From the NCBI GenBank assembly GCA_031362565.1, contig JANLSU010000103.1, positions 1 to 64,000 on the forward strand: DNA of 64,000 nt. The letters are read 5' to 3'. This stretch comes from a bacterium (GTDB taxonomy: Bacteria > Krumholzibacteriota > Krumholzibacteriia > G020349025). Position 1 is the first letter of the stretch, and each line of letters opens with the position of its first letter. The position numbers and the translations under genes were made by a program. The notes beneath the pieces were generated by a model. The model did not search any database, was not told the origin of the DNA, and worked only from the letters and a program-made list of their open reading frames with translations. Of this stretch, positions 4,512 to 37,757 are shown piece after piece.

Positions 4512-7352
4512 TCAGTAGTCTTGCAGCAACACGACATCCTCGGTCGTGACACCGCGGCTGACGATGAATCCCGACCCGTCGTGGAGCGGCGCGAAGGCGT
4601 AGATCCGCATGCCGGTGGGGAACTGCGAAACCGGTTGCGGCGTGCCGCCCGCGACCGGGTAGTTGATGAGGTTCGACGCACCACCTTCACGCACGACGCT
4701 GGTGACGAACTTCCCGTCCGGCGTCCACGCCAACATGAGTTCGTTGGCGTCGAGTGGAACCGGCAACGGAGTTGGCGCGCCGCCGGCAACTGGAACCGTC
4801 ATCACGATCGATTTTCCGCCGACGGGCTTGTCGAACCCGAAGCACAGGACCCGCGAGCCGTCCGGTGACCAGCGTGGAAACGACGCCACGACATCGGTCA
4901 TCGGCACTGGTGTGCCGCCTTCCGCCGCGATCTTCCAGATCCGTGTTTCCGACACGTCGCGCGAACCGTTGAAGGCGATCCATTTGGAATCGGGGCTCCA
5001 GGTCGCGAGACTGCACTGCATGCCGCGCACCATCTGGTGCGGGTTCGTGCCATCGGCATTCGCGACCCAAATGCGCACGCTGTCGGCGACGACCGCGGTG
5101 TAGGCGATGGAGCGGCCGTCGGGCGACCACTCCGGATAGAGGTCGAGGCCGGTGCCCGAGGTGATCTGGTGGGCATTCGAGCCGTCGACGTTCATCACCC
5201 ACAGGTGCGTGCCGCGTCCGGCATCGGACACATAGACGATCGACTTACCATCGGGGGAGAGACCCGGCGTGTCGGTGCGCGCCGTGCCGAAGTCGATTTG
5301 CGTGGCCGCGGCGGTATTTGCCGCCGCCGTACCGCGTGCGGGCAGGCGCCAGAAGTTGGCGGCGGTCGTACTGCGCAGGCAGGTGATCGCCTTGCCATCG
5401 GCGCTCGTCGTGACACTCGTGTAGTCGTTCAGGTCGGAGGTGATTTGGCGTGGCGTCGTGCCGTCGAGCGGCACCGCGAAGACTTGTTCCGCGGTGGCGT
5501 GCGTCTCGATCTTGCCGGCGGCGTAGAAGCCGTTGCGATTCGGCTGCCAGACAAAGGAATTGACCGACGTCCACGCCGTCCCCGGCACCGTGACCGGGGC
5601 GCCGCCCGCCGCTGGGACCAGGATGAAACGGGCGTGAATGTAGTCATTGGTTTCGCGACTCAGCATGGCGATCTGCTGGCCGTCCGGCGACCACTGAGGG
5701 AAAAGGAGAACGGCGCTGCCTTGTCCAACCAAGAGCTGCGGCGGCACGGAGCCGTCGGCCGCGGCGCGATAGATCTCGCACTTCACCGGCGGGATGAGGC
5801 GCATGAACGCGAACTGTTTGCCGTCGGGTGAAAAAGACACCGGGGTCGCCAGGTCGTCATAGAGCTTTTGCGGCGTGCCACCCAAAGTCGCCACCCGGTA
5901 CACGCTCACCGCGCGCGTGCTGTGGACGACCACCAAGTACGTGAGCCAGTTGCCGTCGGGCGAGAACACCAGACCGCCGACTCCCTCGGCCATCGGCGGA
6001 ACGAGCTGGACGGTGCTGCCGGTGGCGAGCTGGTGCAGCATGACGCGGGTTTGACCGGCATTCGCTTCTGCATACGCGACGAACTTGCCGTCTGGTGACA
6101 GGGCCGGCCAGCGCGCCTTGCCGGTCGAAGTGACGCGGGTAATGTGCAACGTGCCGCCGGCGGCCGGTGCCGGCGCCGCCTTGCGATGGCGCATGAACCA
6201 CGGCACGAGTCCAAATGCCAGCACGATGAGCGCCCATGCCGCCACCGCAAGCGGCGACGACGCGGCCCGCCGGCGCGGTGCGGATGCTGCCGGCGTGCCG
6301 GCGTGCACACCGGATGCAACGGACTCAACGGCAGGCGCATGGGCGCCGGAAGGCCAACTCGGCGCGGGCGTCGCGCCGGACGGCCACTGGACGGCAGGTG
6401 CCACACCCGAAGGCGCAGCATACGCCGCCGAAGCCGTGCCCGATTCCACTTCGCGCCTGAGCGCCCGCAGATCGATCGCCAGCTCCTTGGCGCTTTGGTA
6501 ACGCTCGTTCGGGTCCTTGGCCATCGCCTTGCGTAAGATGCGCGTCAGTTCCACCGGCGCATCGGGCCGCGCGACGTGCAGCGGCCGCGGCCACTCCTTC
6601 AGGATGGCATGCATGACTTCGATGGGCGATCCGGTCCCGAAGGCGCGTTCGGCGGTTGCAGTCTCGTAGAGGACTGCGCCAAGCGCGAAGATGTCGGCGC
6701 GTGCATCGACAGCCTCGCCGCGCACTTGTTCGGGCGCCATGTAACCGACGGTGCCCATGACCAGGCCGGGCATTGTCGGCGACGACCCGGACATCACACC
6801 CAAAGCACCGCTTGGCTGAATGACGGTCTCGGCGTTGGCGCCACCCGTGCCCGCCAAAGCCGCCGGGCCGCGATCCGCTTGCAGAAGTTTGGCCAGGCCA
6901 AAGTCCAGAATCTTGACGTTGCCGTCGGCACGGAACATTAGATTCTCGGGCTTCAGGTCCCGATGCACGACGCCGGCGGCGTGCGCTGCGGCCAGTCCGT
7001 CCGCCACCTGAACCCCGAGATCGAGCAACGGGCGCAGGTCGAGCGGGCCGCGCCGCAACCGCTCGCGCACCGTCTCGCCCTCGACGTACTCCATGACGAT
7101 ATAGTGATGGCCTTCGTGCTCGCCCAACTGATGGATCGTCGTGATGCTCGGGTGGTTGAGCGCCGATGTCGTCTTGGCTTCCTGGACGAAGCGTTGCAGG
7201 CGTTCGGGATCGGCGAGGGCGGCGGCGTTCAACAGTTTGATGGCGACCCAGCGGTCGAGCTTGGTGTCCTCGGCTTTGAACACGACACCCATGCCGCCGG
7301 CGCCGAGCTGGTCGCCCAAACGGTAGTGTGAGATGTTCTCAGGAGTGGCCAC
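4512..7352 (-). CDS. Hanks-type Ser/Thr protein kinase with TM helix and extracytoplasmic TolB-like (PD40) beta-propeller
   Basis: LGAGGMGVV, VAIK, HRDLKPEN, DFGLAK, GTVGYMAPE; TM LAVAAWALIVLAFGLV; many (W/F)SPDG repeats. Start placed at GTG 7352. Confidence 0.92.
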   Translation of the reverse strand: MATPENISHYRLGDQLGAGGMGVVFKAEDTKLDRWVAIKLLNAAALADPERLQRFVQEAKTTSALNHPSITTIHQLGEHEGHHYIVMEYVEGETVRERLRRGPLDLRPLLDLGVQVADGLAAAHAAGVVHRDLKPENLMFRADGNVKILDFGLAKLLQADRGPAALAGTGGANAETVIQPSGALGVMSGSSPTMPGLVMGTVGYMAPEQVRGEAVDARADIFALGAVLYETATAERAFGTGSPIEVMHAILKEWPRPLHVARPDAPVELTRILRKAMAKDPNERYQSAKELAIDLRALRREVESGTASAAYAAPSGVAPAVQWPSGATPAPSWPSGAHAPAVESVASGVHAGTPAASAPRRRAASSPLAVAAWALIVLAFGLVPWFMRHRKAAPAPAAGGTLHITRVTSTGKARWPALSPDGKFVAYAEANAGQTRVMLHQLATGSTVQLVPPMAEGVGGLVFSPDGNWLTYLVVVHSTRAVSVYRVATLGGTPQKLYDDLATPVSFSPDGKQFAFMRLIPPVKCEIYRAAADGSVPPQLLVGQGSAVLLFPQWSPDGQQIAMLSRETNDYIHARFILVPAAGGAPVTVPGTAWTSVNSFVWQPNRNGFYAAGKIETHATAEQVFAVPLDGTTPRQITSDLNDYTSVTTSADGKAITCLRSTTAANFWRLPARGTAAANTAAATQIDFGTARTDTPGLSPDGKSIVYVSDAGRGTHLWVMNVDGSNAHQITSGTGLDLYPEWSPDGRSIAYTAVVADSVRIWVANADGTNPHQMVRGMQCSLATWSPDSKWIAFNGSRDVSETRIWKIAAEGGTPVPMTDVVASFPRWSPDGSRVLCFGFDKPVGGKSIVMTVPVAGGAPTPLPVPLDANELMLAWTPDGKFVTSVVREGGASNLINYPVAGGTPQPVSQFPTGMRIYAFAPLHDGSGFIVSRGVTTEDVVLLQDY

Positions 7353-7445
7353 GGTGCGGCTCCCACGCGGCTGGAAAACCGCGCTAAGCAGACTCGATCC
7401 GGCGTTTGGCGTCAAGGTCTGGGCCCCTGGTGCCGGGCCCGGGCG

Positions 7446-7461
7446 TGGTCCTCTTCTTGCA
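7446..7461 (+). promoter_or_regulatory. Possible sigma54 (-24/-12) promoter for the FAD-oxidoreductase / glutamate-synthase-like operon
   Basis: TGGTCC-TCTTC-TTGCA has the correct GG-N10-GC spacing with 2 mismatches to TGGCAC-N5-TTGCW, about 60 nt upstream of ATG 7523. Confidence 0.35.
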
Positions 7462-7522
7462 GCACGCCGTTGCCCTTGGTTTTCGTGTTGTAACGTTCGA
7501 CTTCGCGAAGGGCTCGAGCACG

Positions 7523-10093
7523 ATGAGCGTCGGATCGTTTTTTACCGCGACCCTGGGCACTTCGCTGCAGGAATTCTTGACGTTACCGCGCGATCGGGCC
7601 GCGGCTCTCGTCCGCGGTCGAATTCCGGACTTGCTGCACCTGCTGCGCGCCGGCGCGCCACCAGCGGACGCACTGGAGCCACGCCGCACCGTCCAATGGG
7701 GCAAGAGCCTGGAAGGCGCGCTCCTCGAGGCGCTGAAGCCGCAAGGGCTCGAACTCCAGAATCTGCGCGATCGCATCATCACCGATGGCTTCATGCGGTC
7801 CGAGCTCGACCGCGATCAGAACGTCTACTTGACCGAATTCTTCACCCGGGTGCTGACGCGCGCCGTTCCGGACCTCGTTTTCCAGCCGGCCCACGCGCGC
7901 GAAGTCGAAGTGGCACTCGAATGGGCGCGGCGCCACCGGATCGGCATCGCCACCCGTGGTGCCGGCAGCACCGCCATGGGCGGCGCGGTTCCAAACGACG
8001 GCGGCCTGCTGCTCGAGATGTCGCGCTTCGACCAAATTCATATCGATGTTGCGGACCAGGTCGCGGTGATCGGCGCCGGGGCGCGCCTGAAAACGATTCA
8101 CGGCCGTTTGGCGGCGGAAGGCCTCGAACTCACCACGTATCCATCGAACTTGGGTGGCACATTGGCCGGCTGGTTCAGCGCCGGTGGATTGGGACTCAAC
8201 TCGTTCACCCATGGTGCCGTACAAAACCAAGTGCGAGCGCTGTCGATGGTGTTGCCGCGCGGCGAACAGGTGCATTTCCATGCCGACGGGCGGTTGGATG
8301 TGCTTGCCCCGGAAGCTCAACGGCTCCCGAAGGCGGCGACCGCCAAATGGTTCGAGGCGCACGGCTATCCGGCGTTGACGCTCGCCGACCTGCCGCAGAC
8401 CGAGGGCCAGGTGGGTGTCATCCTGACGCTCACGATGGCAGTTCACAAGCTGCCGGAGCGCACTCCCTTCTATCTCGAAGTCGAAACCGACGGCCAAGCC
8501 ATCGAACTCGCGGCGCACGTCGCCCAAGCGGCCCAGAAGAATGGCGCCAAACCGGCGAACTTGAAGTTCTTGTCGGCCGCTCATGTCGCCGGGGTACGGG
8601 CGATTCGTGGCGACGCTAAACGGGCTTCGAAACCCGCCGTGTACGTCGACTTCGAAGGCGCCGACGAAGCGCAAAAATTCGCGCGCGGTCTCGACACCGC
8701 GCCGCACAAACCACAGAGCGACGAAGCCGAAGCCCGCCGCTGGTTCGCGGATCGCTTCCGCCCGCAACAGACGAAACGCTTGGGCCCCGGCTATCTCGCG
8801 GCCGAGATCCTCATGCCGGCCGAGCATCTGGCGGCATTTCAGGAGGCCGCGGTCAAGCTGGCGCACCGCGTCGGGGTGCATCTCGAAACCGAGGCCTACT
8901 ACTTTGGCGACGGCCGGGTGCTGGCGCTGCCGGGCTACCTGACGCGGGGGCCGCGCTCGGGTTTCCTGTGGGAGCTCGTGCTCGCGCCGATCTTGCTCGA
9001 CCTTGCCATGCAACGCTTTGCGGCGATGCCCTATGTGCTCGGACGCTGGCAGTCGCCGTACTTCGGATGGCGTTACGACAAGGACACACGCCGCCGCTTG
9101 CGCGACAACAAACGGCGCACCGATGATCGCCGGGTCTTGAATCCTGGCGTGTTCTTTGGACCGGCGTTCCGCGTTCCCGGCGTGCAGGGCGTGTTTCGCA
9201 CCACCTTCCCGCGCGGCATTCGCACCCTGCGCGGTTTTTATGGCTCACCGCTCACGGCGTGGTTCTTCCGCGCCGCCATCGGTGCCCGGCATGATCATGC
9301 GGACGGGGCGCGTGTTTCGGCGCGCTGGAACGCCACTGCCGAGGTTGCCGACGCCGAGGCGCGGCGCATGGCGGCCGACTTGGAGAAGTGGCGGCTCGAA
9401 GACTTGGCGCACGCGGCGCGCGGCTGCGTGAACTGCGGCGAGTGCAACAGCGTTTGCCCGATCTTCCACGATGCGCGCATCCGGCTGCCGCAAATGTTGA
9501 CCCACATCGGTGAAGGACTGCGCGCCGGCGCGACGCTCGGCGGGACCGAGCAACTGCTGCTCGATATGTGCATGCGCTGCGGCAATTGCCAGGAAGTCTG
9601 CCAGGCCGACATCCCGCACCTGCCGTTGTATGACGCCATGGACAAGCACGCCGGTGCCGCCGACGAAGTGCGGCGCGAGCGCCATGCGGGAGTTTTGTCG
9701 CATCTACGCTACTCGGAGCGCTACACGCGCGAATTCCTGAATGTGCGTCCGGGCGGCTACTTGCAGCGGACGCCGGCATCGCTTCCCGGCGAGATTCGTT
9801 TCGTGCTCTTCCGGGCCGAGGCCGATGCCGGGCCGGTCGATACCTGCATCCATTGCGGCGCCTGTGTGCCGGTCTGTCCGACGAGCGCCAACCTCGAATT
9901 CCAAGATAAGGCCGATGTGCGCCGGATTTCCACCGACCTGACGCGCTGCATCGGCTGTGGAACGTGTGTCGAAGTGTGCCCGGCGAATCAAAAGAACGGC
10001 AGCCGCACCTTGCGCGTCATGGAAGCGCCGAATCGCGAATTCTTCGAGTTGTTTGCGGCGTTCGAGGCCGGGACCGACGGGAGCCCACGATGA
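7523..10093 (+). CDS. FAD-linked oxidoreductase (VAO/GlcD-type FAD-binding domain) with four [4Fe-4S] motifs
   Basis: PDLVFQP...RGAGSTAMGGAVPNDGGLLLEMSRFDQI...GTLAGW, and LNPG at the end of the cap domain. Fe-S motifs: CVNCGECNSVCP, CMRCGNCQEVC, CIHCGACVPVCP, CIGCGTCVEVCP. Stop overlaps the next ATG (ATGA 10090-10093). Confidence 0.88.
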   Translation: MSVGSFFTATLGTSLQEFLTLPRDRAAALVRGRIPDLLHLLRAGAPPADALEPRRTVQWGKSLEGALLEALKPQGLELQNLRDRIITDGFMRSELDRDQNVYLTEFFTRVLTRAVPDLVFQPAHAREVEVALEWARRHRIGIATRGAGSTAMGGAVPNDGGLLLEMSRFDQIHIDVADQVAVIGAGARLKTIHGRLAAEGLELTTYPSNLGGTLAGWFSAGGLGLNSFTHGAVQNQVRALSMVLPRGEQVHFHADGRLDVLAPEAQRLPKAATAKWFEAHGYPALTLADLPQTEGQVGVILTLTMAVHKLPERTPFYLEVETDGQAIELAAHVAQAAQKNGAKPANLKFLSAAHVAGVRAIRGDAKRASKPAVYVDFEGADEAQKFARGLDTAPHKPQSDEAEARRWFADRFRPQQTKRLGPGYLAAEILMPAEHLAAFQEAAVKLAHRVGVHLETEAYYFGDGRVLALPGYLTRGPRSGFLWELVLAPILLDLAMQRFAAMPYVLGRWQSPYFGWRYDKDTRRRLRDNKRRTDDRRVLNPGVFFGPAFRVPGVQGVFRTTFPRGIRTLRGFYGSPLTAWFFRAAIGARHDHADGARVSARWNATAEVADAEARRMAADLEKWRLEDLAHAARGCVNCGECNSVCPIFHDARIRLPQMLTHIGEGLRAGATLGGTEQLLLDMCMRCGNCQEVCQADIPHLPLYDAMDKHAGAADEVRRERHAGVLSHLRYSERYTREFLNVRPGGYLQRTPASLPGEIRFVLFRAEADAGPVDTCIHCGACVPVCPTSANLEFQDKADVRRISTDLTRCIGCGTCVEVCPANQKNGSRTLRVMEAPNREFFELFAAFEAGTDGSPR

Positions 10094-13000
10094 GCACGAC
10101 CACCGGCCGCACCCACTCCCGGCACCAAGCGCCGCATGCCCCAGCGACGGCGCCCGACGCCAATTCGGTGCTCATGCAGCGGCTGCGCGTTTGGGAAGAC
10201 TTGCTGACCCTGGTCGTCGACCGCGACTCGCACCAGGTCGCCGAGCGTGAGAATCGCCTCCTCCTGCTCGATCAATTGCTGGTGCGCGGCGGCCTCGAGC
10301 CACGCGAATTCTGGACCCTGCCGACGGCGCGGCGTAGCCGCACGTTCCTGGCGCACTATTCGCGCTTGCAGCGTTCGGTGCCGCAACTCGAGATCGCCAG
10401 TTTCGACGTCGACAAAGCGGCAAAGGAGCGCTTCCGGAGTGAACCACTGACGCTCGGCGCATCGTGGCACTACGGGTTTTGGCGCAGCTATTTCTCGCAC
10501 GCGGCGATCACGCACCCGGCCAATGACGGCCTGCGCGAGGAATTTTCGACAGCCTGGGATATCCTGCGCAAGGATCCCGCCGTGTTGCTGCTCGATGCCA
10601 ATGGCCGCCACGTTCTGACCCGGCCGTTCGTCCACCTGGATCTGCCGATTCTCGTCGGGCCCTTTCCACACTCGGACGGCACGACAGTCGAGCGCGCCTA
10701 CTTGGAAGCCGTGCGGCGTGCCGATCCGGCGCGCGATCTCAAGATCGCGACGCGGGTCATCGTCGACAGCGACACGTACCGGACGCATGCAACGTTTTAC
10801 GCCTCGTACCGCCAGAACCTCATCGTCCGCATTCCGCTCGAGGAATTGGCCGCCAATGCCGCGACGCGGCAGCCGGGTGGTTGGGACGTGGTGCGCGAAC
10901 TCGCGGATACGGCGCGCCTCGTCGAGGTCGCAGTGCCCGAGGCCTGCGACGCCGCTCGCCTGCAAGCGGTGCTCGAGCGCTTGAACCGCGAGTACCCGGA
11001 GCTTCTGATTTCGGTCTACTTGCGGTACGGCGAGGAATTCTGGACGTTGCTCTACGCCGCGGCGCGCGCCGAGGGGGTGGCCATGGTGCACGTGCACGCG
11101 GGACCGGAGAAATCCTACCGATTGGTGCCGTGCGTCGACGAATTCCTGAAGCAAGCGCATCTGCGATCGCGGGTGCAATTGGTTTCGGCGGGTGGCGATA
11201 CCGACACACTGCCGTCGGCGGCCGCGGTGTACGAAGCGGTGCTCCTGGGCGCCAACGGCGGCTCGGTGACGCACCTGGCAGAACTGGCGCTGGCGCCGGA
11301 TTTCACGGACGTGGGGCGCGAGGTCCTGGACGCGGCGACGGTCTTCGCCGGGCTGCGCGACCGCGACGCCAAGGAACTCGTGGAACTCGCGGCCTCGTCG
11401 CTCACTTGCTGGCAGCATTCGATTCTGGATTTCCTGTCATGCATGGGCATCGACGACGTGCAGAAGACCTCCGGCAACACCATGGCCATTACCATGACGG
11501 AAGAGTGGATTCGCGACGTCGATGCACTCGCCACGTCGGCCTTCGGCCAAGTGAACAAATCGCTGAATGCGCGGCGCGTCGCCGCCGAGCCGATTCCCGC
11601 CGAGGTGCGCGACCGGTTCCGGGTATCGCGGCTGCTGCAAGAAGTCACGCCCGATGTGCCGCTCGTGGCGGCAGCCAATGTCCTGGCGCACCGCAACGCC
11701 AACTACCACTTGATGAACACCAACCGCAGCCTGACGGCCGATCACTTGAATGTGATTTACCGGATGGCGGCGGGCCGGATGCCCGAGGCGGATGACTTCT
11801 TCCTCGACAGCGATCTGGGTCCTTGGTCCATCGACCGGGTGGGCGTCAAGCTCGAGCGGCGCGACGTGCAGGCGTCGCTCGATGCCTTGCGCCGCGATTC
11901 GCGCGCTCTCGATTACATCAGCTTGGCGGTGCCACGCGGTTTCGACCGGCCTGGTGCCGTGCCGTCGCAGGCGGCGTGCGTGCTCACCGCCGATCGCGCC
12001 GGCAAGACGGTCCTCGTGCGGTTCACCGCCGACGCGACCGGCGCATTCAATGTCGCCGTCCCGAGCGACGGCGGCACGGCAAGTTTGTACCTGCATGTGA
12101 CCGCGCCTGGCGAGACCGCGGCGCGGGTCGTGGAGTTGAAAGCAGCGCCGGCGCCCGAAAGCACCAATGGCATCGACCGGCGCCCGGCGCCGAGCGCGCC
12201 GCCCGGGCTCTCGGTACGCAAGGCGAGCAGCGATCAACGCGTGCTCCTCAAGGCGCAAGCGCCAGGTGGCTTCCGGCTCGAAGGCGACGGCACACGCGAA
12301 CCGGTGTACACGGGCCCCGTGAACCATGCCAGCATCAGCTTGGGTGCGGCGAGTGAAGACTTCCTCTTGGCGCGCGTCGAAGGCAATGCCGGTTTGTCGA
12401 TGACGTCGTCCGGTGAAGGCGGTCCACTGCGTTTGCCCAAGGACGTCATGGCGTGGGAGTCGATGCAGGCTGCGTCGGGGCACTTCGGAATCACCGGCGC
12501 CGACTTGCGGCTCGTGCGCGACGTCGAGATCAAAATCAATCAGGGCGCGAAGCCCGGCAAGGGCGGCCGGTTGTCCGGTCCCAAAGTGACGCCGACGGTG
12601 AGCCGCGCGCGTCATATCCCGGTCGGGGTCGATGCCCTGTCGCCGGATCCCAAGCACGACATCTATTCCATCGAAGACATGCCGGCCGAAGTGTGGCTGT
12701 GGCTGCAGTACGGCGTGCACTGTGGCATCAAAATCACCGGCTCGACCTACACGCGCTTCGTGGCCGCCGGCATGTGGTCCAACTTCGTCGTCGACTATCT
12801 GCTCATCGATTCGGGGATGGGTGGTTCCGGGAACTACCACGCGGATTCGTCGCGGGTCGGCTGGCCGGACATCTTCCGGACGATCTTGCACACCCATCAT
12901 GCGCTCGTGCAGGAACCGCTGTACGACGATGCGACCGGTGAGACGCATCCGATTCGCGATCTGAACGGCGCGGCGTTCGGCGCCGGCGGCGGCACGCGGC

Positions 13001-16000
13001 TTCTGGCCTCGGGCGGCCTGCGAAGCGAAATGGACATGCTGAAGGTGCTCTGCGCCGGCGCCGATGGATTGCTCGAGGCGTCCATCGGCAAAGCGGTGGC
13101 GTTCGGTTGCAACCAGTGCGGCAATTGCCACCTGGATTGCCCGCGCGGCGGCATCACGACCAAGCTCGAACTCATGCTGCAAAACGATCGCGCCACGATG
13201 CGGCAGCGTTTCCGCAACTGGACGGCACTCGACATGGCCAAACTGGCAGTGCTCATCGATGCCATCAACCGCCGTTCGGGAGCGGTCGACGCGGAGGGCA
13301 ATGTCACCAACCGCGCCGAGGTCATCGACGACATCCGCAAACTGCGCGGCCGTACGGATCTCTTGGTGATGCCGCAGCATCCGGCGCCACCGGTCCCGAT
13401 CGTGGTTCCCACTGTCGCGGACGTCGAGCGCGCCCTGGATGTCGATGCAAAGTCAGCGGCGGCGCGGCGCGCTGCCGACGGTGCGACGGGACCGCAGGCG
13501 ACGGCTGCCGGTGCCGAGACGAGTGCGCCGCCCCCCATCGAACACGACTCGTGCCGCGTCGGCAGCTTGCTCGTCTCCGAGCGCGTCGACGTCAGTGCGA
13601 TCTGGGAATCGGCGCGTCTGTCGCACAATGGCGGCAACAACCGCGGCGGCGGCATCGGCTTCGCGGGCTTCGCCCCCGACGCCGTGCGGCAGCGCACCGC
13701 GCTCTTCTTCAACACCATCGGACCCGACCGCGGCGAAACCATGGAGCGCATGCTCGGGCATCTGGATGGACTGCGGTTTTACGACGCGCAAGGCCGCGAG
13801 CTGGGCGCCGATGAAGTGCGCCTCCGCTTGCCGGAATTCCGAGTGCCGGTGCGCGCCGAGTGGGCCGGCGACGACGGTTGGCGCAAAGTGGGCCTGCGCG
13901 AAAACCCGGGTGACATGACGCTCCTCTTCACGGAGCTGCGCGGCGATGCGCTCTGGCGCTACGGACAGCGGTTGGTGGAAAGCCCGCGCTGGGTGCAGCG
14001 TTCGACCAAGTACGGCGACATCGCCACCGCCGAGCTGCAGGGCGCTCTAGAGCGCGCCGTACGCCGCGATGAGCCGTTTGTCGCCGCCGACGAAGATGCG
14101 CGCCTGATGGCTTTCTTGCGCGACGTCAAAGAAGAATACTTCACGACTCTGGCGCATGTCCTCGACACACGCTACTACCGCACCGGCGGCGCGATCCCAA
14201 AGTACGCCGACCGGCGGCGTGGTTTCGTGGTCGCGATGGGCGAGGACATGGGTGCACTCAAGGTGAGTGGCTGGACGCATCTCATCCCGGCCTATTTCGA
14301 TCTCGACAACTTCTGGGCATCGTATCCGGGGGCGCGTGAACAGGGCGGGGTGCGTTTCCTGATTCGCGGCGAGGATACCTGGACGACACGTCTGGTCGCC
14401 TATGCCTGGGGGATGCACCACCGCTATCCGACGAATTCACCCGCCATGGACGCCGAAGGCCGCGGCAACCCGGCCGGTGCACATCCGTTCAAGGCTTACA
14501 ACGTGCTGCTCATGCACAACGGCGAGCAGGTGGGCGTCGATTCGACCGCGCCGATGCTCACCGAACACGCTTGGGTCCACATCGATGATTCGATGGGCGA
14601 GGGTGCCGCTGAGTACGAAGGCGATTCGCTGTACGCGCGGAAGGCGCTCACCGACACCGAGTACGCCGCCTATCTCGTCGACTTCACACGTCGCGTGCTG
14701 GGCTTGGCGACCGACGAAGCGACCCAGGTCATCTCGCCGGTCACCGGCATCGACCTCGAGGCCGTCGAGCCCGAGGAACGCCGCGAACGCTACCGGGTGC
14801 TGGGCCGCAACTTCGTGCACCTGACGCCGACCGGTCCCTACAAGTTCACGATTCTCGAAACCCGCCATACCGCGGCCGGAACCCAAGTCGGGTTCCGCGA
14901 GAACATGGATATCAAGTTCTTGCGCCCGCACGAAATTGCCATCAACTGGGACACGGCGCCGGGCGGCGTCAAGGCGATCGCCAACGGCAGCGAAGCCAAG
15001 ATTGCCGACGCCATGTTGGTGACGCTACGCCAGCAGGCCATGCTGTGTGATGCGGGCAGCGACCTGCGCTTCAACATGCGGCCGGGCGGCCGGCCGGGTA
15101 CGGGGGAAATGGGCGGCGTCTTCGAGGCATTCGTGGGCGTCGAAAGCGGCACCGTGACTCTCAACAATCGGTTCGGTGAGGCGGTGCCGGTGCGCCGCGC
15201 CGGGACCAAGTCGGAAGCGCTGCGCGTTCTCAAGACCGCAGTCAACGGCGCCCGCAAGAAAATTGGCGACGAGGCGCGGGCGCGGTTGCAAGCCGCCGAC
15301 GCGGCAGCGTTCAGCGGCCCGGCGCGCGAGGAATTCGTCGCCTGGACACTCGACAAGGTCCGTGAGTGGAGCTTCGACGAGTACCGCATGGTGGCCGAGT
15401 GGCTCTTGCCGCAAGCCGGCCAAAAGTCGCCGGCGCACTTCGATGCCGCACTCGGCATGCTAACGGAACTCCGCAAACGCCTGCACTTGGCCGACACGGG
15501 CGGCAAGTCGCTCGCGGCACTGCAATACATGACGGACGGCGGCTTCGAGTATGACGGTGAGCCCGAGGGCGGCATCTACCGCTTGCTGCATGCGGTGCCG
15601 CGGCTCTGGGACACCAAGGGTGTGGCGCCGTACGGGCGCATCGACGTAGCGACGCGCGCCGATCTCATGCCGCCTGGGGATCCATCACAAGCGCTGGTCG
15701 TCAACTTCGACGGCTTCGAGAGCGAACAGTTTGGCACCATTGAAGCGGCGCGCTTTGTCTCCGACGCCGTGGCGCGAGGTTGGCGGCGCTTCATCGGTTA
15801 CAACATGCGGGGCGGGCCGCGCTACGTGGGCACGAATACCGCCGACAGTGACGGCCGTCCAGCCGATGGCGTGCGCATCGATCTCTACGGCCGCCAGTTC
15901 GGCGACTTCATGGGTGCGCTCCTGGAAGGCGCCGACATCCGGTGCTACGGCCAAGGCCAAAGTCATGTTGGCATGAAGGCCGACCGCGGTTCGATCTTCG

Positions 16001-16620
16001 TGCTGCAGGACATCCTGAACACCGGGCTGTATGCCGCCCACGGCGGCACGCTCTCGATGTGGGATTCGGGCAGCCGCTTCGCGGTGGCGGGCCAGAACCG
16101 GGTGCATTTGGAAGATGGCACGACGCTCGCGCCGGGCCTGAAATCGATTCACTTTGGTTCGCCCAACGAGTACGCCTTCGAGTACTTGATGTCGGGTGGC
16201 GAGAACTCGCTGCACGTGGTGATGGGGCTCGAAAAACCGGATGCCAAGGGCCAACTGAACGGGCGCTTGCGGCCCTACGCCGGCAAGTTCTTCATGTCGG
16301 GCGCTGCCGCCGGCCGCGTCTATGTCTTCGATCCCACCCGCGCCCTCGAAGCCGGCCAGGTGCACGGCAATGCCGGCGAGCCGGTGACGGTGGAGGAGTG
16401 GGACGCGGAAGTCGGCCCGTTCATCGCCGCCGAAGCCGCCAAACGCAGCCTGCCGATGCAAGTCGTGCCCGGCGGTTTCCGGATCCAATTGGGCGGCGAG
16501 TGGCGCGACTACGCCTGCGGTGATGCCTTCATGCGCTACACGCCCATCCGGGTGCCGAAATCCATCCAACGCCAGGGCGTCGCACCGCCGGCACTCGTCG
16601 GCATGCTGGACGAGCTCTGA
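10090..16620 (+). CDS. Domain-permuted glutamate synthase large-subunit-like protein (2176 aa): degenerate FMN barrel + FMN/Fe-S synthase domain + internal class II glutamine amidotransferase + GXGXG domain
   Basis: GltB FMN motifs SSGEGG, QAASGHFGI, EIKINQGAKPGKGGRLSGPKVT, SPDPKHDIYSIED, ASGGLR, CNQCGNCHLDCP. GATase-II motifs EHDSCRVG, HHRYPTNS, AHPF, MHNGE, TDTE. Beta-helix motifs GDFMGALLEG, AFEYLMSGG, FMSGAAAGRVYV. Start set by the ATGA overlap. Confidence 0.85.
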   Translation: MSTTTGRTHSRHQAPHAPATAPDANSVLMQRLRVWEDLLTLVVDRDSHQVAERENRLLLLDQLLVRGGLEPREFWTLPTARRSRTFLAHYSRLQRSVPQLEIASFDVDKAAKERFRSEPLTLGASWHYGFWRSYFSHAAITHPANDGLREEFSTAWDILRKDPAVLLLDANGRHVLTRPFVHLDLPILVGPFPHSDGTTVERAYLEAVRRADPARDLKIATRVIVDSDTYRTHATFYASYRQNLIVRIPLEELAANAATRQPGGWDVVRELADTARLVEVAVPEACDAARLQAVLERLNREYPELLISVYLRYGEEFWTLLYAAARAEGVAMVHVHAGPEKSYRLVPCVDEFLKQAHLRSRVQLVSAGGDTDTLPSAAAVYEAVLLGANGGSVTHLAELALAPDFTDVGREVLDAATVFAGLRDRDAKELVELAASSLTCWQHSILDFLSCMGIDDVQKTSGNTMAITMTEEWIRDVDALATSAFGQVNKSLNARRVAAEPIPAEVRDRFRVSRLLQEVTPDVPLVAAANVLAHRNANYHLMNTNRSLTADHLNVIYRMAAGRMPEADDFFLDSDLGPWSIDRVGVKLERRDVQASLDALRRDSRALDYISLAVPRGFDRPGAVPSQAACVLTADRAGKTVLVRFTADATGAFNVAVPSDGGTASLYLHVTAPGETAARVVELKAAPAPESTNGIDRRPAPSAPPGLSVRKASSDQRVLLKAQAPGGFRLEGDGTREPVYTGPVNHASISLGAASEDFLLARVEGNAGLSMTSSGEGGPLRLPKDVMAWESMQAASGHFGITGADLRLVRDVEIKINQGAKPGKGGRLSGPKVTPTVSRARHIPVGVDALSPDPKHDIYSIEDMPAEVWLWLQYGVHCGIKITGSTYTRFVAAGMWSNFVVDYLLIDSGMGGSGNYHADSSRVGWPDIFRTILHTHHALVQEPLYDDATGETHPIRDLNGAAFGAGGGTRLLASGGLRSEMDMLKVLCAGADGLLEASIGKAVAFGCNQCGNCHLDCPRGGITTKLELMLQNDRATMRQRFRNWTALDMAKLAVLIDAINRRSGAVDAEGNVTNRAEVIDDIRKLRGRTDLLVMPQHPAPPVPIVVPTVADVERALDVDAKSAAARRAADGATGPQATAAGAETSAPPPIEHDSCRVGSLLVSERVDVSAIWESARLSHNGGNNRGGGIGFAGFAPDAVRQRTALFFNTIGPDRGETMERMLGHLDGLRFYDAQGRELGADEVRLRLPEFRVPVRAEWAGDDGWRKVGLRENPGDMTLLFTELRGDALWRYGQRLVESPRWVQRSTKYGDIATAELQGALERAVRRDEPFVAADEDARLMAFLRDVKEEYFTTLAHVLDTRYYRTGGAIPKYADRRRGFVVAMGEDMGALKVSGWTHLIPAYFDLDNFWASYPGAREQGGVRFLIRGEDTWTTRLVAYAWGMHHRYPTNSPAMDAEGRGNPAGAHPFKAYNVLLMHNGEQVGVDSTAPMLTEHAWVHIDDSMGEGAAEYEGDSLYARKALTDTEYAAYLVDFTRRVLGLATDEATQVISPVTGIDLEAVEPEERRERYRVLGRNFVHLTPTGPYKFTILETRHTAAGTQVGFRENMDIKFLRPHEIAINWDTAPGGVKAIANGSEAKIADAMLVTLRQQAMLCDAGSDLRFNMRPGGRPGTGEMGGVFEAFVGVESGTVTLNNRFGEAVPVRRAGTKSEALRVLKTAVNGARKKIGDEARARLQAADAAAFSGPAREEFVAWTLDKVREWSFDEYRMVAEWLLPQAGQKSPAHFDAALGMLTELRKRLHLADTGGKSLAALQYMTDGGFEYDGEPEGGIYRLLHAVPRLWDTKGVAPYGRIDVATRADLMPPGDPSQALVVNFDGFESEQFGTIEAARFVSDAVARGWRRFIGYNMRGGPRYVGTNTADSDGRPADGVRIDLYGRQFGDFMGALLEGADIRCYGQGQSHVGMKADRGSIFVLQDILNTGLYAAHGGTLSMWDSGSRFAVAGQNRVHLEDGTTLAPGLKSIHFGSPNEYAFEYLMSGGENSLHVVMGLEKPDAKGQLNGRLRPYAGKFFMSGAAAGRVYVFDPTRALEAGQVHGNAGEPVTVEEWDAEVGPFIAAEAAKRSLPMQVVPGGFRIQLGGEWRDYACGDAFMRYTPIRVPKSIQRQGVAPPALVGMLDEL

Positions 16621-16645: not shown

Positions 16646-17557
16646 TCAGCGAAACAGATCGCCGCTCAGGTACTTGAGCCCCGAGTCGCAAATGACCGTG
16701 ACGATGCGATGCCCGGGGCCCAACTCGCGGGCGCGTTGCAGCGCTACGAACACGTTGGCGCCCGACGAGATGCCGCCGAAGATGCCTTCGACACGCGCCA
16801 GTTGGCGGGCTGTTGCGTAGGCGTCGGCATCCGTGACCGCGACGATCGCATCCGCCAAATCGAGCCGGCAGATGGACGGCACGAAGCCCGGCCCCATGCC
16901 TTCCAATCGGTGGCCGCCCTCGATCGGCAAACCCGACAGCGCCCGCGAGGCGGCCGGCTCGATGGCGATGCAACGAACGCCCGGCACGCGCTCCTTGTAG
17001 ATCTCGGCGTTGCCCGAAAAACAACCGCCGGTGCCGACTCCCATGATGAATTCGTCGAAACGTTCGTCGAGGTCGCGTATGACCTCCTCGGCCATCGCGT
17101 GGTAACCGGACCGGTTGTCGGGGTTGTTGAACTGATCGGTCCAATAGGTGTTCGGGGCCTTGGCCAGCTCGCCGACGCGGACGATGAGTCTTTGGATCAG
17201 TTCGGCGGTCACGCGGTGGTCGACGCTCGGGAGCACGTCCAGAGTGGCCCCAAAGGCGCGCATCGTCTGCAGCTTCTCTTCGGCAAAGCAATCGGCGGTC
17301 GCGAAATGCGCCCGGTAGCCGCGCGTCGCGCAAACCATGGCGAGCGAACTGCCGGTGCTGCCGCCGGTGTAATCGATGATCGTGGCGCCGGGGCGAATCT
17401 GGCCGCGGCGTTCTGCGCCGTCCACCATGGCGTGCGCCATGCGGTCCTTCATGCTGCCGGTGGGATTGGCCCCCTCCCATTTGACATAGATCTCGGCGCA
17501 TTCCGGCCCGGCGAAGTGCCGGAGGCGCAAGAGCGGTGTGTTTCCGATTCCGGTCAT
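16646..17557 (-). CDS. PLP-dependent cysteine synthase family protein (CysK/CysM-like, divergent)
   Basis: IGNTPLLRL, KWEGANPTGSMKDR (PLP Lys), GVGTGG, EGIFGGISSGAN, DSGLKYLS. AAAGGAG RBS precedes ATG 17557. Confidence 0.88.
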   Translation of the reverse strand: MTGIGNTPLLRLRHFAGPECAEIYVKWEGANPTGSMKDRMAHAMVDGAERRGQIRPGATIIDYTGGSTGSSLAMVCATRGYRAHFATADCFAEEKLQTMRAFGATLDVLPSVDHRVTAELIQRLIVRVGELAKAPNTYWTDQFNNPDNRSGYHAMAEEVIRDLDERFDEFIMGVGTGGCFSGNAEIYKERVPGVRCIAIEPAASRALSGLPIEGGHRLEGMGPGFVPSICRLDLADAIVAVTDADAYATARQLARVEGIFGGISSGANVFVALQRARELGPGHRIVTVICDSGLKYLSGDLFR

Positions 17558-17592
17558 GACACTCCTTTGCGCGCCTCTCGTACGGCGCTCAC

Positions 17593-19002
17593 TTACTTCG
17601 ATTCGGTGCACGCGCCCCAGAACTCGTCGCCGCTGACGATACTCTTGGTGCCGTAGCCGTCGAGCGGCCAAGTCGCGTAGAACGCCGTGACATCAAGTCC
17701 GAGCGTCTTCACCGTGTCGCAAAGCTGCTTCGACCGTCCGGTGAGCGGTTTACCCGGCCGGTAAAAAAGCAGGTCACCGGTGGTCAGCACCTTCTGGCGC
17801 GGAAAATAGAAGATCAAGTACTCGTCGGTATGTCCCGAAGCGACGTTGAACACTTGGACCGTGTTGGTGCTGTCCGCGAAGGTGCGGCGGTCTTTGATGG
17901 TCTCGGTACGGAGCGGCTTCGGATCGCGCGCCAGGGCGTCGGGCCGCAGCTCGAACCGCGCCTGCACCACCGCTTCGATGAGCTGCACGGTCGTCGGCGG
18001 CGCGAGCACCGTCGCGCCTTCGTGCACCCAGGCGCGCGTGCCGCCGATGTATTGGCCGTGCAGGTGGCTGAAGGCGAAATAGCGCACCGGCTTGTGAAAA
18101 TGCGCCTGCACCTTGGCCGCGATGCGCTCGCAAGCGCCCGAATTGTAGGCGCCCTCCAACACCATGAGGTGATCGCTGAACTCGGCGATGAAGACCCGCG
18201 TGTTCATCGACGCGACATCGATCGTGAACAAGTGGGGCGCGGCTTCGTGCAGTTCGATCTCGGCGGTTGCGACGACGCGCTGGCGGTCGGCATCCTTGTC
18301 ACCGGCCGGAACGTCCATCTGGACGTTGCGTGTCACCGGGCCAAAGTCGAACCGCGCCACTTCACGCCCGCGCAGTGTGACCACCGCCCGGCCGGGTATG
18401 GCACTCGCATCACCGGCCGGCCAGGCTTCGAAGCGCACTTTTTCGATGCCGTCTCCCAAGACGTCGTTGTACACCGCGCGCTGCAGCGAGCGGATGCGGC
18501 CGTGCTGCGTGTCGAGATCCACGGTCCAGAGTTCGTCGTTCCATGCGAAGAGTGCTGCTTGGCCGGCGGTGTGGGGGCGCAGGTTTTGGCGGTGCTCGCG
18601 GATGGCGTTGGCGATGATCGATGGGTGAAGCGCCGCCACTGTCGCCGCCGCCAGATCGCCGAAGGGCGACGGACGCTTCTCGACGCCCTTGTCATCCACC
18701 TGAAAGAGGCGGCCGCGCCGGACGTTGTAACGGTCGATGTCCTTGGTGCCGGCGGTCTCCCCCTCGGATTCCAGTTCGACGACCGACTCGCCGACATCGG
18801 GATTCACCAGGATGCGAATCGTGATGTCATACCGGTGAAAATCACCTGGATGCATCGGATGGCCTGCATCGGTGACGAAGCCGGTGCCCGAGATCTGGTA
18901 CGGGGCCGTTTCGATATCCGCGACCCGGTCGAAAAGATCGGCGGCCGCCGCGGCGTGCGTCGAAATCACTCCCGCGACAACTGCCAAGCCGAGCCAACGC
19001 AT
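17593..19002 (-). CDS. Secreted protein with C-terminal metallo-beta-lactamase-fold domain (degenerate metal motif)
   Basis: Signal peptide MRWLGLAVVAGVISTHAAAA. KPVRYFAFSHLHGQYIGG sits at the HxHxDH position; GHTDEYLIFYFP and TGDL follow. Confidence 0.72.
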   Translation of the reverse strand: MRWLGLAVVAGVISTHAAAAADLFDRVADIETAPYQISGTGFVTDAGHPMHPGDFHRYDITIRILVNPDVGESVVELESEGETAGTKDIDRYNVRRGRLFQVDDKGVEKRPSPFGDLAAATVAALHPSIIANAIREHRQNLRPHTAGQAALFAWNDELWTVDLDTQHGRIRSLQRAVYNDVLGDGIEKVRFEAWPAGDASAIPGRAVVTLRGREVARFDFGPVTRNVQMDVPAGDKDADRQRVVATAEIELHEAAPHLFTIDVASMNTRVFIAEFSDHLMVLEGAYNSGACERIAAKVQAHFHKPVRYFAFSHLHGQYIGGTRAWVHEGATVLAPPTTVQLIEAVVQARFELRPDALARDPKPLRTETIKDRRTFADSTNTVQVFNVASGHTDEYLIFYFPRQKVLTTGDLLFYRPGKPLTGRSKQLCDTVKTLGLDVTAFYATWPLDGYGTKSIVSGDEFWGACTESK

Positions 19003-28697: not shown

Positions 28698-30011
<1,314 letters not shown>

Positions 30012-30022
30012 AGAAGGACGGC

Positions 30023-31363
30023 ATGGGCGACGCGCTCTTTTGGCACCGGCTGCAGTTCGGCTTCACGGCGGTCTATCATTACATTTTTCCGCAGCTCACC
30101 ATGGGGTTGGCGCTGCTCATCGTTGTCATGAAATGGATGGGACTGCGCCCCGGACACGACGCGTGGAACGACGCGGCGCGCTTTTGGATCCGCATCTTCG
30201 GTCTCAACTTCGCGGTTGGCGTCGTCACCGGCGTGCCGATGGAATTCCAATTCGGGACCAACTGGGCGGCATTCTCCGCACGCACCGGTGGCATCATCGG
30301 CCAAACGCTCGCCATGGAAGGTATCTTCGCCTTCTTCTTGGAGTCGAGCTTCTTGGCGCTCTTGGTTTGGGACGAGCGCCGGCTGACGCCGCGCCAGCAC
30401 TTCATGGCAGCCGTCGCACTCTTCGCGGGCAGTTGGCTGTCGGGTTATTTCATCATCGCCACGAACGCCTTCATGCAACGCCCGGTTGGCCACGAGGTGG
30501 CGGCCGACGGCAGCCTGCAAGTCGCGGATCTGACAGCGTACCTGTTCAATCCGTGGGCGCCGGTCCAGTACCTGCACAACCAAATCGCCGCGGTCGTGAC
30601 CGCCAGTTTCGTGCTGTGTGCCGTCGGAGCGTTCTGGATGCTGCGGCGCGAGCACCATGCGGTCGCGCGCGTGACGCTTCGCACCGGCGTCCTGGCGGCC
30701 TTCGCATCCTCCATGCTGGTCGCGTTCCCGACCGGCCACGCGCAGGGGCGCCTCGTAGCGCAGTCGCAGCCGGTGACTCTCGCCGCCATGGAAGGCCGCT
30801 TCGAGAGCGGCCCGCACGCTCCCATGACGATGATCGGCCAGCCGAACGTCGAAGCACGCAAACTCGACAATCCAATCCACTTGCCGGGCATTCTGTCCTG
30901 GATCGCCTACGGCGATTTTTCGGCGAACGTCCGCGGCCTGAATGATTTTCCAGAAGCCGATTGGCCGACCAACATTCCGTTCCTGTACTACGCGTTCCAC
31001 ATCATGGTCGGACTCGGCACGATCTTCATCGGTTTGAGCGCCTTGGCGGTGCTGCAGCTCGTGCGCCACCGGCTCGACACGAGCCGGCCCCTCTTGTGGG
31101 TCCTGGTGCTGGCATTTCCATTCCCGTACATCGCCAACAGCGCCGGCTGGATGACCGCCGAGCTCGGCCGGCAGCCGTGGCTCGTCTATGGCGTCATGCG
31201 CACTTCGGAAGGTGCCTCACCGCTCGTGCACGGCGGCACGGCACTCTTCACGACGCTCGGTTTCGCAGGTCTCTACTTCGTACTCGGGCTCTTGTACTTG
31301 GCATTGGTGGGGCGCGAAATCAAGCACGGACCGCCGCATGCGGCCCCCGGTTCGCACGCCTAG
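30023..31363 (+). CDS. cydA: Cytochrome bd ubiquinol oxidase subunit I
   Basis: RLQFGFTAVYHYIFP, GVVTGVPMEFQFGTNW, EGIFAFFLES, QPVTLAAMEG, FHIMVGLG, GWMTAELGRQPW. Confidence 0.95.
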   Translation: MGDALFWHRLQFGFTAVYHYIFPQLTMGLALLIVVMKWMGLRPGHDAWNDAARFWIRIFGLNFAVGVVTGVPMEFQFGTNWAAFSARTGGIIGQTLAMEGIFAFFLESSFLALLVWDERRLTPRQHFMAAVALFAGSWLSGYFIIATNAFMQRPVGHEVAADGSLQVADLTAYLFNPWAPVQYLHNQIAAVVTASFVLCAVGAFWMLRREHHAVARVTLRTGVLAAFASSMLVAFPTGHAQGRLVAQSQPVTLAAMEGRFESGPHAPMTMIGQPNVEARKLDNPIHLPGILSWIAYGDFSANVRGLNDFPEADWPTNIPFLYYAFHIMVGLGTIFIGLSALAVLQLVRHRLDTSRPLLWVLVLAFPFPYIANSAGWMTAELGRQPWLVYGVMRTSEGASPLVHGGTALFTTLGFAGLYFVLGLLYLALVGREIKHGPPHAAPGSHA

Positions 31364-31373
31364 AAGGAATGTC

Positions 31374-33742: not shown

Positions 33743-33779
33743 TCTGAGCCGCGACGCGCATCCGATCGGACGGAATCCC

Positions 33780-35432: not shown

Positions 35433-37628
<2,196 letters not shown>

Positions 37629-37757
37629 GCTCGAGCGCCTCCTTGGGACGCAAAAGGACTCCTGTTCCGAGGCATCAACGAACCACGCGTGCCGCACCCG
37701 AAGAACGAGCGAGATCGAGGGAGTGCGTGGCCGCATCGGACCCAAGGAACTGGGCGC

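Follow-up and report, generated by a model that had tools for sequence, protein, structure and literature searches.

In glutamate synthases (glutamine:2-oxoglutarate amidotransferases, GOGAT) that carry a GltD subunit, electrons travel from flavin adenine dinucleotide (FAD) through two 4Fe-4S clusters and a 3Fe-4S cluster to flavin mononucleotide (FMN). Catalysis by class II amidotransferases, which belong to the N-terminal nucleophile (Ntn) family, relies on an N-terminal Cys whose alpha-amino group is free. In N-methylglutamate synthase (MgsABC), the class II amidotransferase-like, GXGXG and FMN-binding Glu_synthase parts are three small, separate subunits; the reaction involves no net redox change and there is no dedicated reductase. 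According to PMC3448663, the characterised glutamate synthases use only NADH, NADPH or ferredoxin, and putative F420-dependent glutamate synthases of methanogens (FGltS) have been predicted from genomic context. Here we describe a pair of genes, A and B, in a 64,000-nucleotide stretch of DNA (hereafter the window; positions 1 to 64,000 of contig JANLSU010000103.1, assembly GCA_031362565.1) from a bacterium of the Krumholzibacteriota. The assembly measures 5.4 Mb and is rated 100% complete; within it, the window is contig C3. Gene A encodes a flavoprotein with four cluster motifs and gene B a GltB-like protein whose domains are permuted. Together they are probably a glutamate synthase of a new architectural class, with A in the role of GltD.

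The genes occupy two open frames of the + strand (7406-10093 and 9964-16620 in the open reading frame (ORF) listing), in a window of high G+C content (63-71%). Their ATG starts, at 7523 and 10090, give stop-free proteins of 856 (A) and 2176 (B) residues, and the ATGA at 10090-10093 belongs both to the stop of A and to the start of B. The closest full-length homologous locus (L010) is estimated to have the same 4-base overlap. An earlier sequence-only reading of the window had described two genes with an ATGA overlap, a divergent kinase on one side and a convergent cysK-like gene on the other, and this description was correct in every part.

The nearest counterparts of the pair are the GltB/GltD enzymes of Azospirillum brasilense (1ea0, 2vdc, 6s6s) and Bacillus subtilis (7mfm). 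The FMN barrel blocks and the positions of the cluster Cys residues are alike, a second subunit brings a flavin and Fe-S clusters, and the class II amidotransferase and the C-terminal beta-helix of B stand in the same mutual arrangement as in GltB (Z 19-20.6). The two systems differ in domain order and in partner. GltB runs amidotransferase, central domain, FMN domain and beta-helix, whereas the order in B is barrel, FMN domain, amidotransferase and beta-helix. The nucleophile Cys, which in GltB lies behind a short propeptide, is residue 1155 of B; a fourth Cys is added to the three of the cluster motif, and B has extra helical and beta-rich inserts. Two families of GltB are not matched by B in sub-segment scans at E ≤ 10, namely PF04898 (central domain) and PF00310 (GATase_2); the latter has no match anywhere in this genome either. 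As for the partner, a VAO-fold FAD protein with four [4Fe-4S] motifs stands here in place of the Rossmann-type GltD. The adjacent GltD small subunit of NADPH-GOGAT is absent, and the conserved neighbour is A.

Ferredoxin-dependent GOGAT (Fd-GOGAT) of Synechocystis (1ofd, 1ofe, 1llw) is the best structural match of both halves of B, and it is likewise a single large chain without GltD. It has the canonical domain order and takes electrons from free ferredoxin, whereas here a dedicated flavoprotein with a chain of clusters is always encoded upstream. MgsABC has the same three module types as B; in B they are fused, with large extra domains, and are coupled to a flavin/Fe-S chain. The predicted FGltS is a precedent for a GOGAT catalytic unit that is paired, by genomic context, with an electron-input subunit other than GltD; that input is an F420H2 dehydrogenase of the FrhB/FpoF type (PMC3448663), the system is archaeal, and it has neither a permuted megaprotein nor a VAO-type flavoprotein. 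The sequence-only reading had allowed that the two-gene architecture might already be characterised; the full-text literature that we searched, at the level of listings, gave no description of it.

The search for homologs of B gave 152 sequences at E ≤ 0.001 among 8000 scored candidates, so the observation is not a product of chance. Among the 120 homologs listed, identity to B was 54-81%, in most cases with 98-100% of the length covered. When one genome per species was scanned, 65 loci were found, all labelled as metagenome-assembled genomes (MAGs); 15 that started inside B or had less than 300 nt upstream were set aside, so that the synteny count covers 50 loci. A homolog of A lay upstream of B on the same strand in every one of these 50. 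The two genes were directly adjacent or overlapping in 42 loci (an estimate), and three loci were irregular, in assemblies showing frameshifts. A ClpP-like/NfeD-like ORF separated A from B in one locus. In four others, a gene for type III glutamine synthetase (GSIII) lay between them: at 3618-5948 in L016 and 2226-4559 in L028, both found by Pfam, and at equivalent places in L032 and L057, where tblastn with the window's GSIII gave matches at about 50% identity. Where a glutamine synthetase (GS) is linked to the A-B system, it is GSIII. Beyond GSIII and sporadic genes, no other conserved neighbour was found by greedy ORF clustering, a procedure that merged A and B and included antisense shadow ORFs. 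In six loci (L035, L042, L043, L044, L058 and L061), the homologs of A and B were split over two or three frames; these splits look like indel errors of assembly and not like real gene fission.

The loci carry the labels Eisenbacteria, Krumholzibacteriia, Latescibacterota, Planctomycetota, Thermoleophilia, other Actinomycetota, Limnocylindria and Udaeobacter. No cultured carrier was present among the records and clusters examined, and the labelled ones were all MAGs or metagenome contigs. The names of the proteins in databases were limited to 'glutamate synthase-related protein', 'FAD-binding protein' and an automatic 'glycolate oxidase'.

A profile search of 1.84 billion representatives gave 261 matches at E ≤ 0.001. 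Natural fusions of the two proteins occur among distant relatives. Three proteins of 2829-3016 residues (P0285, P0396 and P0397) are single chains with FAD_binding_4, FAD-oxidase_C, Fer4, Glu_synthase, GATase_6 and GXGXG. These chains are colinear first with A (in P0396 over residues 87-806, E 3e-34) and then with B (residues 890-2804, E 1e-28). Co-location in 50/50 loci and these fusions make A and B one conserved unit, as the sequence-only reading had supposed; none of the loci counted lacked an A homolog upstream of B. The two proteins would presumably also touch each other; a modelled complex of the fragments A 600-856 and B 700-1100 scored 0.00 and gives no verdict on contact. The wider superfamily includes a 2204-residue form labelled Brocadiia, with an N-terminal ferredoxin domain. 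Among four long forms (P0285, P0396, P0397 and P0321), three had C-x5-C-x3-C as the cluster motif of the FMN domain and not the four-Cys motif.

The FMN domain of B was recognized directly. Glu_synthase was the only Pfam match of the full-length protein (residues 742-945, 3.9e-44, cut-off 20.4 bits); a genome-wide profile search placed it at 12313-12927 and 12997-13221, with a tail to about residue 1044. In the sub-segment scan, residues 1-700 and 1501-1900 had no Pfam match even at E ≤ 10, and residues 1001-1600 gave weak Fer4 and Glu_synthase tails only. NCBIfam gave far-sub-threshold matches only. For the FMN domain, a profile search of the PDB found GltB at 8.3e-25, and hhalign aligned residues 792-1028 with a canonical GltB at 39% identity over 204 columns (E 5e-19). 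The canonical GltB used as the reference in our alignments (L074) comes from another carrier genome. The blocks QGAKPG.GG and SP.P.HDIYSIED are common to both proteins. In the FMN domain, C1007, C1013 and C1017 of B line up with the three Cys that bind the cluster in canonical GltB (C-x5-C-x4-C-P), C1010 is extra, and all four are invariant in the alignments of B. Because of this fourth Cys, the cluster of B is probably a 4Fe-4S cluster in place of the 3Fe-4S cluster of GltB.

The AF2 model of residues 1-1100 of B was of middling quality (pLDDT 70.9, pTM 0.60), and in Foldseek GltB and Fd-GOGAT ranked first among its matches (7.6e-08 over about 900 columns). The N-terminal barrel, residues 99-457, a confident fold of the (beta/alpha)8 type, was aligned by VIA with GltB 1ea0_A (Z 18.3, 285 residues aligned, root-mean-square deviation (rmsd) 3.5) and, at Z about 16, with glycolate or mandelate oxidase and IMPDH. 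On this model, it may correspond to the central domain of GltB or be a second barrel with another role; a fused relative has a sub-threshold Glu_syn_central match at the equivalent place. Within the barrel, a run of about 30 residues (126-156) is invariant across phyla.

The C-terminal half, residues 1101-2176, gave a good AF2 model (pLDDT 77.6, pTM 0.83). Foldseek found GltB at 7.5e-10 and, at lower rank, the glutaminase domains of GlmS and PurF. With VIA, the model matched Fd-GOGAT 1ofe_A at Z 20.7 (570 residues aligned, rmsd 3.6); the match spans model residues 55-1054 and chain residues 1-1498, and therefore the amidotransferase and the beta-helix of B would sit relative to each other as they do in GltB. 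PurF, GlmS, GFAT, EgtC and asparagine synthetase scored Z 9-16, with PurF and GlmS at Z 14-16 and 17-18% identity, and the helical domain between amidotransferase and beta-helix had generic helical matches only (Z ≤ 7.5). The motifs HHRYPTNS (1443), HNGE (1476) and TDTE (1521) belong to the amidotransferase; HHRYPTNS corresponds to HRRFSTNT of canonical GltB, and LLMHNGEQ to LLAHNGEI. Comparing the C-terminal half of B with canonical GltB by hhalign gave no significant alignment, and GXGXG (PF01493) matched B directly at E 0.013 only, under the cut-off. In the fused relatives, GATase_6 reached 1.1e-08 and GXGXG 3.9e-15, and so the fold assignment of B is tied to sequence families by transitivity. 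The permuted GltB-like protein of the sequence-only reading is thus borne out by Pfam, PDB profile and hhalign for the FMN domain, and by the Z of 20.7 for the amidotransferase and beta-helix.

The main consequence of the permutation is an internal amidotransferase nucleophile, Cys1155, which had not been seen in the sequence-only reading. As the module order is changed, the amidotransferase starts in the middle of the chain. The structural alignments with GltB, PurF, GlmS, GFAT, EgtC and asparagine synthetase all begin at model residue 55, which is Cys1155, against chain residue 1 or 2 of those enzymes. Cys1155 and its surroundings were invariant in 20/20 and 34/34 sequences of two alignments; D1153, S1154 and R1156-S1159 were invariant, and E and H of EHDSC nearly so. 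Canonical GltB starts with MTSPFDREHAAC-GVGF and has the propeptide junction REHAAC-GVGF, the equivalent of which in B is AEHDSC-RVGS. The 55 residues before the Cys motif are variable, and pLDDT falls below 50 at model residues 1-9 and 12-52.

There is no start codon at Cys1155, which is preceded by 1154 residues (two barrels and the linker). Since an Ntn Cys needs a free N-terminus and this one lies in mid-chain, we predict that B cleaves itself between Ser1154 and Cys1155. The cut would give chains of about 127 kDa and about 112 kDa that stay together, as in other Ntn enzymes. Natural split variants that start just before the same Cys support the prediction. Among the 261 matches of the profile search, six stand-alone relatives of 718-898 residues (P0307, P0320, P0325, P0326, P0339 and P0357) have a short leader followed by GGCGV, and the two that were scanned with Pfam both had GATase_6 and GXGXG. 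By their sequences, these proteins correspond to the C-terminal half of B encoded on its own, with the division falling precisely at the Cys. In the self-cleaving Ntn hydrolases glycosylasparaginase and gamma-glutamyltranspeptidase, an internal nucleophile becomes the new N-terminus and both chains are kept; these enzymes use Thr or Ser and belong to other subfamilies, whereas B would use Cys. To our knowledge, class II glutamine amidotransferases have only short propeptides, and none has a functional N-terminal part of 1154 residues.

The sequence-only reading had called A a FAD protein with four [4Fe-4S] clusters, and the FAD_binding_4 match and four CxxCxxCxxxC motifs (Table 1) agree with this. 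Many Fer4 families matched A in Pfam, and all Cys of the four motifs were invariant in an alignment of 32 homologs. FAD-oxidase_C (PF02913) matched A weakly (E 0.0069, 16.6 bits, under the 21.2-bit cut-off) and reached 3.3e-07 in the fused relatives. A profile of the 32 homologs placed LctD of the lactate dehydrogenase/Etf complex (7qh2_C, 1.3e-20) as the nearest solved relative in the PDB, followed by D-lactate dehydrogenase and other VAO-family enzymes. It aligned with LctD in three segments, of which the weak ones reached the C-terminal end of the cap, including the LDP..LLN motif; the GHAGDGN..H and GEHG stretches of LctD fell on non-matching or insert positions of the profile. No invariant His occurred between residues 294 and 542 in the alignment, and several Arg/Lys residues (R406, R411, K418, R419 and R508) were invariant. 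A search of the ESM Atlas with A, by sequence lookup and not by structure, returned its own cluster and generic FAD/Fer4 clusters only.

A therefore has FAD_binding_4 and, apparently, the overall cap topology in common with GlcD/LctD/LDHD enzymes (7qh2_C, 8jdc, 9qgz), and its Fer4_8/Fer4_17-type dicluster domain resembles that of the GlcF-like partners. It differs from this group by an extra ferredoxin domain and by having neither the H.GDGN.H and GEHG motifs, nor an invariant cap His, nor CCG domains. The electron acceptor of A would evidently be B, as opposed to the quinone or electron-transfer flavoprotein of the GlcD/LctD group. Profile matches indicate that A descends from this group with a remodelled substrate pocket, because the 2-hydroxyacid dehydrogenase motifs are missing, the cap has no invariant His and several Arg/Lys are invariant.

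These domains suggest the following course for the reaction. B would hold all four modules of GltB in a new order: barrel, FMN/Fe-S barrel, amidotransferase and beta-helix. A donor, either an organic substrate bound in the remodelled pocket of GlcD/LctD type or a nucleotide, would reduce the FAD of A. From there the electrons would cross the four [4Fe-4S] clusters of A and reach FMN by way of the Cys1007-1017 cluster of B, in direct parallel to the GltD-linked path. In the cleaved C-terminal chain, Cys1155 would hydrolyse glutamine, and the ammonia would move to the FMN site, where 2-iminoglutarate would be reduced to glutamate with the two electrons from A.

The genes for nitrogen assimilation elsewhere in the carrier genomes bear on this proposal. 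The sequence-only reading had asked whether the hosts carry canonical gltBD. PF00310 was missing not only here but also in 13 of the 15 other carrier genomes, and the two that had it were labelled Thermoleophilia. In one of these (G005), a canonical gltB (contig C4, about 1,913,454-1,916,455, L074) lies directly beside a type I GS gene, about 55 kb from the A-B copy on the same contig. A second PF01645 match of the present genome, on contig C111, was considered as a GOGAT-like gene and rejected, as it is IMPDH; GDH is present. The A-B system occurred in 4 of the 151 genomes of the window's phylum, all in its own family, and in 12 of the 81 genomes of another phylum, that of carrier G001. PF01645 genes were found in 17 of these 81: the 12 carriers, in which the megaprotein was the sole match, and five genomes with a small stand-alone type. 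By these profile matches, the A-B system is the only GOGAT-like enzyme where it occurs, in this genome and the 12-carrier sample. GltD was looked for with TIGR01317. None lay in the 64-kb window, as the sequence-only reading had stated, and the matches in the genome were confined to contigs C30, C11 and C31, each scoring below the curated cut-off. In this genome, PF00120 matches the GSIII of the window alone, the four family relatives have one GS each, and PF00120 was present in 71 of the 81 genomes of G001's phylum.

Several observations weigh against the proposal of a glutamate synthase with A as its GltD equivalent. The amidotransferase of B had no direct Pfam family match even at E ≤ 10, and its class II assignment depends on the predicted fold, short motifs and the transitive Pfam matches. 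The N-terminal barrel had no direct sequence-family match, and the FMN barrel was poorly modelled, with pLDDT below 50 at residues 816-926, its most conserved part. The organic electron donor proposed in the sequence-only reading was not borne out by the A family: neither A nor four relatives, fused ones included, matched regular expressions for the H.GDGN.H and GEHG-type patterns, which we take to form the His/His/Glu metal site in D-2-hydroxyacid dehydrogenases. A stand-alone GltD/NfnB-like protein of 467 residues with Fer4_20 and Pyr_redox_2 is encoded on contig C30 (5615-6958; L004 1477-2880), and the neighbouring ORFs that were scanned had no Pfam match; the substitution of the flavoprotein for GltD, which the conserved A-B unit and the absence of PF00310 favour, has this gene against it. 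The rarity of PF00310 itself is general, with two weak matches in the 151 genomes of the window's phylum and none in the 81 of G001's phylum. Canonical GltB is almost absent from both phyla regardless, and therefore its absence in carriers says little; phyletic complementarity with canonical GltB was set aside as a sign of replacement, since PF00310 is rare with or without the system. Most genomes of the sampled phyla do without any GOGAT-like gene.

The distribution of GS adds to these objections. Within the 81 genomes, GS was missing in 9 of the 12 carriers (G001, G166, G173, G175, G181, G194, G203, G227 and G230) and in 1 of the 69 non-carriers; this is a pattern and not a test, because of the kinship among the carriers and because no completeness values are given for them. 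The G001 genome, of 4.16 Mb, is one chromosome in a single record. In the three carriers that matched, the only hits were weak, GSIII-like ones (about 71-74 bits), and in two of these genomes the hit lay about 3 kb before the A-B system on the same contig. Ten further carriers had GS in seven cases and lacked it in three. As there are carriers without GS, in which the enzyme would use up glutamine that the cell is unable to produce, a plain GS/GOGAT cycle cannot be the general role of the system. The suggestion that the GSIII 19 kb away supplies glutamine holds for this genome to the extent that it is the only GS present, and it does not extend to most carriers of the other phylum.

The identity of the electron donor leaves room for another account of A. 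The chemistry may be the same, with NAD(P)H or a low-potential protein carrier feeding A, which would then be a non-homologous functional replacement of GltD. The missing metal-site motifs of A and its fused relatives agree with this, the invariant Arg/Lys would suit a phosphorylated or nucleotide ligand, and the fold of the second Fe-S domain is that of an ordinary 2x[4Fe-4S] ferredoxin. MurB, a member of the FAD_binding_4 fold, uses NADPH. We regard this account as unlikely, though a real contender, as Pfam detected no Rossmann or other nucleotide-binding domain in A and its nearest solved relatives, LctD, LDHD and glycolate oxidase, are substrate dehydrogenases. Reduction of B by the GltD-family protein of contig C30, with A as an accessory, regulatory or assembly protein, is very improbable: that protein exists in the genome, but it scored 174 bits against the 447.7 required of a true GltD and lies on a different contig, whereas A carries the full chain from flavin to clusters, adjoins B where GltD does not in 50/50 loci and is fused to it in relatives.

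It is also conceivable, though we give it little credence, that the substrates or the direction of the reaction are different. B could resemble N-methylglutamate synthase in being an amine or amide transferase, or its amide donor could be something other than glutamine; or glutamate could be oxidised at the FMN and the electrons leave through A for an acceptor. In bacteria that lack GS, this last course might even have an unusual part in the metabolism of glutamine or ammonia. The carriers without GS in both samples would fit either version, and the N-terminal 735 residues of B hold its most conserved segment without an assigned role. Outward delivery of electrons is common in VAO-family flavoproteins, many of which are oxidases or dehydrogenases. 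Against this stand the 2-oxoglutarate/FMN blocks, nearly identical to those of GltB, the invariant nucleophile Cys and amidotransferase motifs, and the GSIII gene embedded in the operon in four loci. In a transferase, where there is no net redox change, a five-cluster wire and a second flavin would be needless. The reverse reaction would require amide formation by a reversed glutaminase without an activation step and, by our own rough thermodynamic estimate, would be favourable only with acceptors above about -70 mV. A glutamate synthase reduced through A is the reading that we continue to prefer.

The features of the window are collected in Table 1. The kinase and the PALP gene bound the unit, and in other loci the kinase was not a conserved neighbour of A-B (neighbour ORF clustering). 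A second Ser/Thr kinase gene of the window (33576-35432) adjoins the GSIII gene. Two adjacent ATP-grasp genes (ATPgrasp_Ter type) and a Polyketide_cyc2 gene (38414-41169) lie beside GSIII on the same strand. The ORF at 28698-30011 has DinB_2 and FGE-sulfatase domains, an architecture that we take to be that of EgtB/OvoA-type sulfoxide synthases, and it is followed by the genes of cytochrome bd oxidase subunits I and II (29789-32420).

Table 1. Features of the window, with positions in nucleotides and residue ranges (aa) of proteins A and B
Feature	Position	Strand	Basis
Gene A (P0001, 856 aa), FAD / 4x[4Fe-4S] flavoprotein, proposed electron-input subunit	7523..10093	+	Translation, Pfam, PDB profile, synteny
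FAD_binding_4 (VAO/PCMH-type) domain, A aa 116-252	7868..8278	+	PF01565 1.1e-25, profile positions 1-138 of 139
Cap/substrate-domain region, A aa 253-600, diverged from FAD-oxidase_C	8279..9322	+	PF02913 sub-threshold
First dicluster domain, A aa 632-697, Cys motifs from 635 and 683, Fer4_8/Fer4_17 type	9416..9613	+	Pfam, motif search
Second dicluster domain, bacterial ferredoxin type, A aa 773-822, Cys motifs from 775 and 809	9839..9988	+	Pfam, motif search
Gene B (P0002, 2176 aa), permuted GltB-like protein	10090..16620	+	Translation, Pfam, homolog alignment
N-terminal (beta/alpha)8-type barrel, B aa 99-457	10384..11460	+	AF2 model, VIA
Beta-rich, poorly conserved insertion, B aa about 610-735	11917..12294	+	Model strands E614-E746; variable consensus
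FMN-binding Glu_synthase barrel, B aa 742-1090, QGAKPGKGG and SPDPKHDIYSIED blocks	12313..13359	+	Pfam, PDB profile, hhalign
Fe-S cluster motif C1007-x2-C1010-x2-C1013-x3-C1017-P	13108..13140	+	CxxCxxCxxxC motif search
Variable Pro/Ala-rich linker, B aa 1095-1150	13372..13539	+	No alignment consensus; disordered in model
E-H-D-S-C1155, predicted autoproteolytic site S1154/C1155	13540..13554	+	Invariance, structural alignment
Class II (Ntn) glutamine amidotransferase, B aa 1155 to about 1700	13552..15189	+	Foldseek, VIA, motifs
Helical domain between amidotransferase and beta-helix, B aa about 1714-1842	15229..15615	+	Model helices H614-H742
GXGXG-type beta-helix, B aa about 1868-2152	15691..16545	+	VIA; Pfam of relatives
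Divergent Ser/Thr kinase with PD40 repeats; unit boundary	4512..7415	-	Pkinase 2.4e-44
Convergent PALP gene, CysK-like in fold class; unit boundary	16646..17671	-	PALP 1.4e-64
Type III glutamine synthetase (GSIII)	35433..37745	-	GSIII_N 1.1e-75; 18.8 kb past the end of B

In its most specific form, which we offer tentatively and with some doubt, the proposal is that of a fourth glutamate synthase class with a wide occurrence among uncultured bacteria of soils and sediments, in which a 2176-residue chain cuts itself at an internal Cys to create the N-terminus of its glutaminase, and in which the electrons come from a substrate oxidised at a VAO-type flavin, through a five-cluster wire, and not from NAD(P)H or free ferredoxin. 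By the labels of the records, the system is spread over several poorly known phyla. The permuted order leads to a testable prediction, that a class II amidotransferase would be activated by cutting off a long, functional N-terminal part; we know of no description of such an activation in this class. If the proposal is true, the combination of a GOGAT core with a lactate-dehydrogenase-like flavoprotein would be a new link between the oxidation of carbon compounds and the assimilation of nitrogen. The nearly exclusive absence of GS in the carriers of one phylum raises the question of how those bacteria handle glutamine, and in the lineages without GS the enzyme may have a different physiological role in the metabolism of glutamine and glutamate.

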